From a virus (Duplodnaviria > Heunggongvirae > Uroviricota > Caudoviricetes): a DNA stretch of 57,943 nucleotides. The position numbers are program-made. Numbering within the stretch: position 1 is the stretch's first letter; each line of letters starts with the position of its first letter. Where the stretch lies: positions 1 through 57,943 of IMG/VR virus record IMGVR_UViG_643348545_000013. The stretch is one strand, 5' to 3'. This document shows positions 18,001-21,000 of the stretch, one piece after another.

Positions 18001-21000
18001 TTCACGTAACGTCGCCATTCACCTTTCTCCGGGCGAAAAAAAACCTGCCGCAGCAGGTTTTATTCATCAGCAGATTATTGATTAAGTTTCGGGTACCAGC
18101 CCGGGATTCAGACTTCCCGGACTCAGTGTATACATGCCGCCATTGAATGGGTCCACAAGCAACCAGCCAACAATACCACCAAAGACAAAGTTACCACCAA
18201 TATACCAGCCATTAGCCGATGCCTTGATCGGCAGCGTTACGGGCTGATAATTCTCTTTACTGAATGTGATCTGATAACTCTTTTTCCCGAAGTAACTGCC
18301 ATCTGATTTTTCAAGTGTTACATTCTGCGGTGTTTTACCCGAAGAAATTGTTTTCCCTGACTCATCTTTAATAATAAAATCCGCGCCAGCCGGATTACTG
18401 TTTACCTGTACAGTCTGCGTTTTATCTCCGACAATGGTTGCACACCCCGTCAGAAAAAAACTTACAGAGAAAATCAACAACATGAATTTCTTCATAAAAT
18501 AACTCCATTCAGTTAATTTCCCCCAAAAATACTGTAATAAATACCCGCAAGGTTGACATTAATTCTCTGAGGCAAATAACAGAGCATTTTCCAGCTCTGC
18601 AAACGGATCCATCTCCTGCTTGTCCTCATCCTCGCCCCAGCAGAGCATGGCATCCTTCAGTGCAACGTTCATTCCCTGCGCCCCGAAAACCGCTTTCACG
18701 ATCTGCGCATTACGGATATCCCCGCGCTCATCGCCCAGCGGAGACACCCTGTCGAACTCCATCCACATCATCGCTTCACTCGCACTCAGGCTATGCCGCA
18801 GTTCGGATAACGTGCGCCCCAGACGGAGCGCAAGTCGCATCAGAAAGCGTATTTCCGGGCGGGCTACTTTTTTCTGGCCGCCTCTGCATCAGCGATCAGA
18901 TCCAGTGCCTGACGCAGCAACCGGGCATGTACCGGACCATAGACGACCAGCACCTGCTCCCGATCGTCCGCAGTGAACACCCGCTGCAGATCCGTATCAC
19001 ACAGCACATCGCAGAACAGCGTCACATCCGCTTCCAGATTACGGCGGGTTTTCGCCACCACCGACAGAGGTTCGTCACCCGTATCACCGTCATTAAGCAC
19101 TTCCCGCCACAGATACCAGGCCTCTGCCGAAGGTTCCCGCAGCACCACGCTGACATTTTCCCATTCAGGCACCCGCACCGTTTTATGACGAAACCCTGAC
19201 AGTCTGGCCAGCGCCAGCGTTTTCAGATCCTTTTTCATGATGACCCATCCCCTTATCCGGCGGCTGCGCTCACAGTCACGGTGCATTCAACAGACGTCAC
19301 ACTCTGTGCCCTCTCTGCCGAATCGGTCACCACGCAGGTATATTTCCCCGCATCGGCGGACTGCGCGTTTGGCTTACTGAAGGTGTCAGCCGTCTGCCCC
19401 TCAACCGGCTGACCGTCCTTCTTCCAGGCGTATTTATACGGCGGCGTTCCCCCGTTGACACTGACTGACATTGTCAGCAGCGCACCAGTATTCACGGCAA
19501 GTGTCTTCTCCAGATTTTTCACAAACGCCAGCGGTACCACATAGAACATCGGTTTGCCTTTCAGGCGCAGTGAAAACGTTGCAGCCACCACGCCGTTGGT
19601 ACCGGATGACCAGGTGTGCTGACGCACTTCCGCCAGGAACTTAAAGCCCTTACCGGACGGAAACTGCACCTTAAACGCATACACCGTGTCATTGTCATAG
19701 GCATCACGCAGGGCGTTCTGGGCCTGATTCAGATAAAAATTACCCGACATGGAAATCTCGGACGACGCCCCCAGACCGTTGATGTTCTCCTGCTCTGTGG
19801 AGCAGAGCGTGGTCACATCAATATCCTGTTTCTGACCGGCGGTGAACTGGACTTCCTTGATGGTGCAGTCCAGGCGCAGATATTCCGCCTTATCCATAGT
19901 TTCAGCAGTCGCCGGGGCAGATGAAATCATCACCTGCGTCAGCTGTGAGCGTTCATACAAAGCAGACATTCTGCCTCCTGATAATAAAAAACCCGCACGC
20001 GGCGGGGTATGGGTTTTGTAGAAAAAAAGAAAAAGTCACACCGTGACCTGAAACTCCAGGGTTGCACGGTAACAGCGGTTTTCCGGAATATAGTCCTGCA
20101 TTTCACTGACGGATCCCGGGGCCAGCGCCATTATGGACTCACGGGCGTCCTGACGTATCTGACGCGCCTGCGTCACAGTCCCGGCATAAACGTCTATCTG
20201 CACCGACACTGAGGACTCCGCCTGCCCGCCCATCACGTCCGCCGACACCGATGAAATCAGGCTGAAAACCACCCACGGAAGCGCCACCGACGGCCTGCCA
20301 TCCAGCAGGGGGACCACATACGGGTACACCTGCCCGCCGGCAAGATGCGCCAGATAAGGATACAAATCCGTCTCCGTCATCGTCTCAGCACCTCATCAAT
20401 GGCCCGGTTCATACGCGCAATTGCCACCTGAGCTGCCTGTTCACTGCGCACATCAAACGCCGGGCGCACAAACGGGTGCGGTGGCATATTCACGGTCCCC
20501 ATTTCCACAAACCGCCAGTAGAAAGCATTGCGCGGGTTATCCGCCTTCATGGTGTTATCGCTGTTACCGGTATCCGGATTAACACCACGGATATGGACAC
20601 CGGATTCCATCCCGCCATCGCGGGAGCGCCGGGAAAGGACCACCACATTGCGGCGCAGTTTTCCCCTGCGCACCGGTGCCCGTGACACCACTTCTTCTTT
20701 CAGTTCATTCGCCCCCGCGCGGGTTGCCTCACGCAGTACCCGGTTGTTTTCTGCACCACTCAGAAGCTGCAAATCACGGCTTATTTCTTCAAGTCCTGAA
20801 AAATCCAGCAGGGTTTCGATCATTTTTCCCCTCCCAGCCGGCAGAGAATTTCCAGGCGCCCGCCGGTCGCATCCGGCACGGGCACCCCGACAACATTCAG
20901 GATACAGTCACGCCAGGGACCACTCAGCACATGAAGTCGTGACGCCGCCGTGATTTCCCGACCGGACTGACCGCGCACCCAGATGCGGATTTCCGCCTGC

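Follow-up and report, generated by a model that had tools for sequence, protein, structure and literature searches.

The term moron was first coined for gene 15 of phage HK97 (Cumby and Maxwell commentary), the product of which, gp15, is a proven exclusion protein (PMC3594210). Several other phage-encoded envelope proteins with related properties have been described. Llp of T5 and Cor of phi80, N15 and HK022 are small lipoproteins that reside in the inner leaflet of the outer membrane, inactivate the TonB-dependent transporter FhuA from the periplasm, and exclude phages as well as colicin M. The lipobox-bearing Lpp proteins of the mEpimmI siphophages have their genes within the cluster of structural genes, and their expression from a plasmid leads to the exclusion of phages with a particular outer-membrane receptor. 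The Iss-like Bor of lambda and phage 21 is the product of a lipoprotein moron located between the lysis genes and cos. We analyzed a 57,943-nucleotide stretch of DNA, virus record IMGVR_UViG_643348545_000013 in its full length (hereafter, the window), which is a lambdoid Escherichia coli prophage with an HK97-type head and tail and with its late genes on the minus strand. An earlier note on this DNA had proposed two lipoprotein morons in the late region, and open reading frames are indeed present on the minus strand at 18082-18495 and at 29550-29891. The first, denoted here the T/H gene after its neighbors, encodes a protein of 137 amino acids, and the second, the TonB_C gene, encodes a predicted lipoprotein of probably 108 amino acids that corresponds to the C-terminal domain of TonB (Table 1). 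Both genes are morons, that is, self-contained accessory cassettes in the late operon, and their products probably shield the surface of the lysogen from other phages or toxins, as part of the ordinary cargo of a prophage.

The placement of the first gene between G-T and H, as proposed earlier, was borne out: the tail chaperone frames T and G (18559-19286) and the tape measure gene H (14776-18018) flank it. This is the slot and the layout of HK97 gene 15, in which G/T is followed by a gap of approximately 60 nucleotides, the gene for a small envelope protein, an intrinsic terminator and, after about 15 nucleotides, the ATG of the tape measure (MATLRELI...). The late-operon direction, the existence of chromosomal homologues and the absence from sister phages are also shared between the two genes. 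The positions of the two lipoprotein genes had been described as non-canonical, a view that we do not retain: the T/H junction is the site of HK97 gene 15, and the gap between the lysis genes and cos/terminase, which holds the TonB_C gene, is the bor region of lambda and phage 21. The likeness to HK97 does not extend to the protein itself, as gp15 is a 62-amino-acid inner-membrane protein of the YebO family rather than a lipoprotein and shows no sequence similarity to the T/H protein; furthermore, exclusion has been demonstrated for gp15, whereas for the T/H protein we infer it.

A second slot is found in P22-like phages. Gene 15 of epsilon34, listed without known function, and gp14 of Gally are true homologues of the T/H protein, with approximately 69% identity, and are located between the ejection-protein gene 16 and mnt (the 'ant moron'), in the region where P22 has sieA. 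SieA, in contrast, is a polytopic inner-membrane protein that is encoded on the opposite strand and has no homology to the T/H protein. Similarly to the P22-like phages, the window prophage possesses an arc/sar/ant module, which in this case is embedded in the tail operon. A tblastn search of the phage collection with the window protein retrieved epsilon34, Gally and 720R6 only; the mEpimmI Lpp proteins, which are other, small proteins, were not among these matches. Among 80 IMG/VR loci that carry the T/H family, about 12 are siphoviral; here T and the tape measure flank the gene, and the tail proteins are 47-100% identical to those of the window. In the remaining 67, which are P22-like, its neighbors are the gene-16 homologue and mnt, and no sieA homologue is present in any of them, an observation that is suggestive at most. 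In Proteus prophages, which have an unrelated tail module, the homologue again immediately precedes the tape measure gene. In some P22-like phages (Gally gp13, at 4378-4893 of the locus L002, and 15 IMG/VR loci), the divergently oriented neighbor of the PEGA-like gene also encodes a lipoprotein (...LLIIPLLLAGC...).

The comparison with colinear relatives identifies the T/H gene as an insertion. In a megablast search with the region 17900-19300, 92 phages, mostly Stx-converting, match both flanks at approximately 94% identity in two pieces; the matched region spans 908 bp in these phages as opposed to 1,401 bp in the window, the difference being the missing 493 bp with the T/H gene. The flanks are found in 1,245 of 5,426 complete E. 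coli genomes, and only 5 of these possess the insert, with about 1,240 lacking it. Alignment of the junctions places the left boundary of the insert inside the hairpin just upstream of H and the right boundary in the last ~12 codons of T, which differ from those of the insert-less phages and thus delineate an exchanged patch that extends to about position 18600. The GC content of the insert is 0.37-0.41, compared to 0.56-0.67 in H and approximately 0.59 in G/T. The gene is absent in colinear relatives, deviates in its base composition and is accompanied by a terminator hairpin, three hallmarks of a moron under the Juhala/Hendrix definition; for a further one, a promoter of its own that is active in the repressed prophage, there is a weak candidate (see below). 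A structural role in the tail was considered and rejected in view of the export signal and the lipobox, and of the about 1,240 near-identical tail modules that lack the gene, including those of plaque-forming Stx phages.

The T/H protein has the N-terminal sequence MKKFMLLIFSVSFFLTGC followed, from +2 onwards, by ATIVG, with two lysines in the n-region, a hydrophobic core, the lipobox LTGC ending in Cys18, and alanine at position +2; given this alanine, the lipoprotein is predicted to be sorted to the outer membrane. The lipobox matches both the strict pattern, [LVI][ASTVI][GAS]C, and the PROSITE-type pattern. Across 46 homologues with 55-93% identity, Cys18 and about 30 other positions are invariant, and the most strongly conserved block is N95-P126 (NGWYIGGN..FGG.IGW..VDP.NGGMY..P). 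The protein matches the PHROG 6823 profile end to end (E = 5.1e-73; residues 2-137 aligned to positions 1-136 of the 139-position profile), has 346 homologues in a protein database clustered at 90% identity and, in a profile search at E <= 1e-3, gathers 5,440 clusters at 50% identity. Given the PHROG 6823 match, the homologues and the clusters, 18082-18495 is a real gene, and PHROG 6823 is a very large, uncharacterised family. Two candidate annotations were discarded: the NCBIfam matches cover the signal peptide only, and no family match stands behind the label 'YceK' assigned by JGI.

The fold of the mature T/H protein appears to be a PEGA/transthyretin-like β-sandwich. The protein itself falls below the gathering threshold of the Pfam PEGA family (PF08308; 18.2 versus 20.8 bits), weak PEGA matches are found in 10 of the 46 relatives, and a sequence search of the PDB gave no significant match. 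In the AlphaFold model (predicted local distance difference test score, pLDDT, of 78.8), a seven-stranded sandwich (residues 26-94) is confidently predicted, a glycine-rich hydrophobic helix (residues 96-113) is modeled with low confidence, and a final strand (residues 122-125), again confident, rejoins the sandwich. Because both ends of this helix are on the same side, it would not span the membrane and, to judge from the model, is more likely embedded in one leaflet or part of an oligomerisation surface.

The genomic contexts of the family support an outer-membrane location and hint at an association with β-barrels. One family member (P0173) is fused to an OmpA-like transmembrane barrel; another is encoded 10 bp downstream of the gene for an 8-stranded outer-membrane protein; and the chromosomal homologue of Actinobacillus succinogenes (positions 6001-8364 of the locus L009) lies, in an operon-like arrangement, 14 bp upstream of the gene for a lipoprotein of the TbpB_B_D/FHBP_C type, which is followed by a Slam (SlipAM) gene. 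A systematic link of the family to Slam and surface lipoproteins was not upheld, as the arrangement seen in A. succinogenes is missing in two other Pasteurellaceae genomes. On the strength of these contexts, the T/H protein could be envisaged as a partner or organiser of outer-membrane β-barrels, which would act through its glycine-rich segment in the inner leaflet and modulate a host outer-membrane protein or the porin of the prophage, with any effects on phages being secondary and caused by receptor masking. Of six contexts shown for the identical protein, five indeed have a porin moron after tail gene M, at a distance of about 4 kb from the lipoprotein gene. We nevertheless consider this explanation improbable: three anecdotal contexts stand against a family of thousands of members, the insertions of the porin and the lipoprotein were independent events (the porin is missing from one lipoprotein locus, L018), no porin accompanies the T/H gene in the P22-like phages, and the helix on which the explanation hinges is the part of the model with low confidence.

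With respect to expression, a GGAG Shine-Dalgarno sequence (18503-18506) is located 7 nucleotides ahead of the ATG of the T/H gene, and a weak candidate sigma-70 promoter was read from the sequence further upstream (Table 1). A conserved promoter was sought and rejected: no common -35/-10 pair is found upstream of the gene in epsilon34, Gally, Proteus, Enterobacter and the divergent siphoviral loci. The hairpin between the stop codon of the T/H gene and the start codon of H folds with -20.8 kcal/mol (z = -2.5), and was not reported by a simple terminator scanner. In divergent loci it is retained with changed stems (CCTGC/GCAGG, CCCGC/GCGGG, ACCGC/GCGGT), and this hairpin may be a conserved attenuator of tape measure expression as well as a recombination hotspot for moron gain. 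A GC hairpin with a T run between T and H was also observed in phages without the moron, for example, in JLK-2012 (locus L003, approximately positions 1630-1660).

By analogy, the most likely role of the T/H protein is superinfection exclusion or a remodeling of the envelope, the former being a possibility that we hold with considerable doubt. The exclusion reading derives from the slot and the precedents: the gene fills the place of HK97 gp15 in the siphoviral tail operon and, in the P22-like phages, the 'ant moron' where P22 has sieA. Under this scheme, the protein would be made in the lysogen and, in addition, by read-through late in infection; a short tether would be followed by the PEGA/transthyretin-like sandwich and then by the invariant glycine-rich hydrophobic segment, which probably dips into the membrane leaflet or drives oligomerisation; and the protein, held at the periplasmic face of the outer membrane, would block the envelope-crossing step of incoming phages.

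The fold of the second lipoprotein, tentatively likened to the TonB C-terminus in the earlier note, is confirmed by profile searches, sequence comparison with the PDB and structural matching of the model, all of which agree. Pfam TonB_C (PF03544) matches with E = 1.4e-14 (54.7 bits against a cut-off of 24.6) and TIGR01352 with E = 1.2e-14 (54.4 bits against a cut-off of 27.1); a phmmer search of the PDB reaches 4e-16 for TonB C-terminal domains, with the alignment covering residues 153-231 of E. coli TonB (1U07, 2GSK, 2GRX); and the same three structures are the top Foldseek matches, at approximately 40% identity and a probability of 1.0. The domain that follows the lipobox signal peptide is complete, and the phage protein shares with the E. 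coli domain this level of identity over 153-231, the α-β-β-α-β order of elements and the strand that pairs with TonB boxes. Residues Tyr163, Pro164, Phe202, Trp213 and Phe230 of TonB are conserved, and so is the last strand, in which KKTFIFS is aligned to VVNILFK of TonB. In contrast to E. coli TonB, the 108-amino-acid protein has neither an N-terminal transmembrane helix nor a proline-rich spacer, is missing the final 8 residues of TonB, and is predicted to be anchored by lipid in the outer membrane, with about 8 residues between the lipidation cysteine and the domain. Full-length TonB equivalog models (NCBIfam PRK10819 equivalogs) accordingly score 49-74 bits against cut-offs of 265-448, and only their last ~85 profile positions match.

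The lipobox of this protein (IILLSSLVMGC, with threonine at +2) matches the PROSITE-type pattern only, the strict pattern failing through the methionine at -2. Variants with 72% identity have the lipobox L(A/S)VGC, and a Klebsiella phage homologue with 40% identity has the canonical LLGC. Thus, the lipobox signal peptides claimed earlier stand for both proteins, and the cysteine is conserved in the homologues of each. The true start of the gene is probably the ATG at 29876 rather than the GTG at 29891, to judge from the sequence, because the NCBI call is for 108 amino acids and because phage 21 retains the AGGA Shine-Dalgarno sequence together with the second ATG while the upstream ATG is changed to ATA.

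The status of this gene as a moron, also part of the earlier proposal, agrees with its absence between the HNH gene and Rz in the related STEC299 prophage and with its low GC content (0.385-0.47 compared to 0.54-0.605 in the neighboring genes). It is carried by Stx1a phages, JLK-2012, phage 21, ev017 and the Klebsiella phage, and is present in 417 of the 5,426 complete E. coli genomes (about 8%), with 171 relatives in IMG/VR. In every phage examined, it is located downstream of the lysis genes and before cos/terminase, in late-operon orientation. In phage 21 it adjoins bor, which is transcribed from the opposite strand, has a serum-resistance function and shows no family relation to either lipoprotein. 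That one or both lipoprotein genes are non-functional passenger DNA is hardly credible to us: the lack of a known function and the weak, non-conserved promoter match of the T/H gene would fit, but neither reading frame is disrupted, 710 blocks of the contig collection are indexed as containing the identical T/H protein, the invariant positions of the T/H family persist across the whole range of identity given above, and the TonB_C gene, besides its abundance among complete genomes, has a lipobox and a fold that are conserved down to 40% identity.

A candidate promoter with an extended -10 element precedes the TonB_C gene (Table 1), and its -10 region, ATTGT(T/C)AGAATAAGAC, is conserved in phage 21, the protein of which is only 72% identical. 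A perfect 8+1+8 palindrome that resembles a Fur box overlaps the -10 element. Regulation by Fur was not accepted and is a weak lead only, as 22 sites in the window reach 13/19 and the second half-site is absent in phage 21. The scan found no terminator after the gene.

The location downstream of the lysis cassette, in the same orientation in all these phages, raises the question of whether the TonB_C lipoprotein has its role in the lytic cycle or at the cell wall, either as a peptidoglycan-binding tether between the outer membrane and the wall or as a lysis accessory. PHROG 1267, to which the protein belongs, is labeled 'Rz-like spanin', and affinity for peptidoglycan has been reported for the TonB C-terminus. 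However, the window has its own canonical, embedded Rz/Rz1 pair 2 kb away, a ParDE pair and a KilA-N gene stand between this pair and the TonB_C gene, the latter has a promoter-like site of its own, and the protein is a globular TonB domain rather than a short proline-rich o-spanin lipoprotein. The identity as an o-spanin was therefore rejected, the PHROG label, most likely derived from position and lipobox, is probably an annotation error, and a role in lysis or in the wall is very unlikely. The interval between the lysis genes and the TonB_C gene (30310-31794, minus strand) encodes a ParE-like toxin (31260-31589), a ParD-like antitoxin (31564-31794), a KilA-N/ORF11CD3 protein (30564-31130) and an 85-amino-acid open reading frame without a family match; a DUF3950 (YlcI/YnfO-like) gene (29158-29418) is located on the strand opposite to the TonB_C gene.

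The structural logic of the 108-amino-acid protein suggests, with something close to an even chance in our estimation, that it is a decoy at the TonB boxes of TonB-dependent transporters, competing there with TonB. The C-terminal domain would have been cut from the ExbB/ExbD-coupling anchor and the spacer and re-anchored to outer-membrane lipid; being severed from both, it could not transduce energy. Through the retained strand KKTFIFS it would pair with TonB boxes, occupy the transporters and compete with TonB, and the lysogen would resist phages and colicins that depend on TonB, with some loss of siderophore uptake. Such an effect has precedents cited in a review (PMC9841981): TonB-dependent import of iron is inhibited when the periplasmic domain of TonB is over-produced, and colicin killing and phi80 infection are lowered by a TonB-box pentapeptide. 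The mode of action would differ from that of Llp and Cor, which have a small disulfide-bonded fold and act by allosteric stabilisation of the plug, whereas the TonB_C protein would imitate TonB where it meets the TonB box and might act on all of the transporters alike. The earlier note had likened the two lipoproteins to Bor and Cor; neither belongs to a Bor, Iss, Cor or Llp family in Pfam, NCBIfam and PHROG scans, so the resemblance is an analogy of kind and not one of membership.

Two lipoprotein morons, with the T/H protein acting in exclusion and the 108-amino-acid protein as a TonB-box decoy, make up what we tentatively regard as the best explanation of the data as a whole. A bolder generalization, which we hold possible but less likely than not, is that the decoy represents a new mode of receptor-family-wide exclusion and colicin protection distinct from that of Llp and Cor and, at the same time, that PHROG 6823 is a new exclusion family of siphoviruses and podoviruses that acts on the periplasm-crossing ejection machinery.

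Several observations weigh against the combined explanation. No functional study of either protein was found in the full-text literature, and among the defence models of PADLOC-DB the 137-amino-acid protein has no match while the 108-amino-acid protein has one at chance level (E = 0.022). The promoter of the T/H gene is weak (8/12) and not conserved, and both genes are oriented as the late operon, such that their expression is possibly confined to lytic growth. The insert-less phages share the T-H hairpin, so the terminator is not unique to the moron. The absence of sieA from the 67 P22-like loci has no base rate with which it could be compared. Many members of the T/H family are chromosomal and not located in prophages (an Enterobacter orphan gene and the Pasteurellaceae genes), and for this reason the ancestral role of the family is cellular, as it is for gp15 and YebO, rather than phage exclusion. 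With regard to the decoy, the AlphaFold2 model of the 108-amino-acid protein is of moderate quality (pLDDT 63), and constitutive production of such a protein would cost the host iron uptake. Moreover, Gln160 and Arg166 of TonB are implicated in contacts with the TonB box and FhuA, and in all three phage variants Gln160 is replaced by Leu, Tyr or His and Arg166 by Tyr.

The cellular affinities of the T/H family lend some substance to another interpretation, namely, that both lipoproteins are host-fitness or virulence factors, involved in Bor/Iss-like serum resistance, stabilisation of the outer membrane, adhesion or stress tolerance, and that the prophage only spreads them. The family, for all its size, is mostly not phage-borne and occurs in chromosomal contexts; the same prophage carries other surface-remodeling cargo, namely, a porin, a YadA-like adhesin and a NanS-like esterase; and bor occupies the same lysis-to-cos region in phage 21. 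Yet neither protein has a Bor family match in the scans, both phage slots of the T/H gene are known slots of exclusion genes, and a TonB domain without the energising part has no obvious positive role in transport. We consider a pure host-fitness role possible, albeit on the unlikely side.

Surface-remodeling morons of prophages influence the host range of phages, the sensitivity to colicins and, in some cases, virulence. If the decoy proposal is correct, hundreds of pathogenic E. coli lysogens, mostly Shiga toxin-producing E. coli (STEC), would possess a built-in modulator of all TonB-dependent uptake, with effects on the uptake of siderophores, vitamin B12 and haem, on siderophore-antibiotic conjugates and colicins, and on T1-, phi80- and T5-like phages, and hence with a bearing on phage therapy and Trojan-horse antibiotics. 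The T/H lipoprotein, for its part, would provide a first way into the function of a family that comprises more than 5,000 sequence clusters and has no known role. Should neither protein turn out to confer a phenotype, both would stay routine hypothetical cargo of a prophage.

Table 1. Coordinates of the two lipoprotein genes, their predicted signals and selected neighboring features in the window
Feature	Position	Strand	Remarks
T/H moron gene: 137-amino-acid predicted outer-membrane lipoprotein, PEGA/transthyretin-like β-sandwich and glycine-rich hydrophobic C-terminal motif	18082-18495	-	PHROG 6823
Predicted signal peptide and lipobox of the T/H protein, M1-C18	18442-18495 (Cys18 codon 18442-18444)	-	Pattern matches
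Candidate sigma-70 promoter of the T/H gene, ATGTCA/17 nt/TACAGT	18531-18559	-	Weak, 8/12 matches; below the scanner threshold of 9/12
Intrinsic-terminator hairpin, AAAACCTGC-TGCG-GCAGGTTTT, and T run	18036-18061	-	Between lipoprotein stop codon and H start codon, 17 nt from the latter
TonB_C moron gene: predicted 108-amino-acid lipoprotein, TonB C-terminal domain	29550-29876 (probable start; mechanical open reading frame to GTG 29891)	-	TonB_C; Cys18 codon 29823-29825
Candidate promoter of the TonB_C gene, ATGACC/16 nt/TAGAAT, TG upstream of -10	29909-29936	-	Scanner 9/12 and extended -10
Perfect 8+1+8 palindrome overlapping -10, AGAATAAG-A-CTTATTCT	29897-29913	-	Fur-box-like, 13/19 on + strand at 29893
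Tail chaperone G	18864-19286	-	Phage_TAC_1 1.4e-56
Tail assembly chaperone T frame, upstream flank	18559-18840	-	Phage_tail_T 1.7e-18
Tape measure H, downstream flank	14776-18018 (start codon 18018)	-	Phage_HK97_TLTM 8.4e-88, TMP_3, Tape_meas_lam_C
Rz/Rz1 pair, canonical, embedded	31936-32487 and 31998-32183		
Bro-N/P22_AR_C antirepressor	10108-11022	-	
sar antisense RNA	11024-11090	+	Rfam 69 bits
Arc-like repressor	11312-11584	+	
ClpP-like protease	11584-12120	+	

The late genes of the prophage follow, from high to low coordinates, the order lysis cassette with Rz/Rz1, small and large terminase, portal, HK97-type capsid, tail tube, G, T, H, M, L, K, I and J. The exact 137-amino-acid protein, with the same neighborhood, is found in a prophage of E. 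coli ED1a (CU928162.2) and in many contigs from gut metagenomes. The porin gene (13072-14235, minus strand; 387 amino acids, Porin_1 E = 1.8e-139) is an insertion at the M/L junction of the tail genes, an arrangement that we presume to be akin to the Lc porin conversion by phage PA-2. Most of the loci with the identical lipoprotein also carry this porin, and its absence from L018 marks it as an independent moron. The P22 immI-like module (10108-12120) is located between tail genes L and K, so that both parts of the P22-type 'ant moron' are present in a siphoviral tail operon, at separate junctions.

Further features were noticed elsewhere in the window. A head-region protein (21503-22726, minus strand) contains a 54-amino-acid tandem repeat (IPVPRDGRDYDPDVLQKAVNDAVANIPLPADGKSITPDDVRPMLEQMVKEAVSH) in three full copies and one partial copy, and related loci encode versions of 299, 353 and 407 amino acids that differ in exact 54-amino-acid steps; the number of copies is thus polymorphic among loci. 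The C-terminal, receptor-binding part of the tail-tip protein J (4968-5720, minus strand) has a close match in PhiR12_5 only (99.6%), other phages showing approximately 44% or less over most of its length; the attempt to deduce from it the receptor of the prophage, possibly a TonB-dependent transporter, was abandoned, as this sole close match is uncharacterised. The remaining surface-related cargo consists of a trimeric autotransporter with a YadA anchor (832-2022, minus strand) and a DUF1737/SASA (NanS-like) esterase (36060-38057, minus strand), and matches to Rfam include the small RNA STnc100 (38664-38868), the C4 antisense RNA with isrK (42565-42752) and the lambda cIII thermoregulator (50589-50647).

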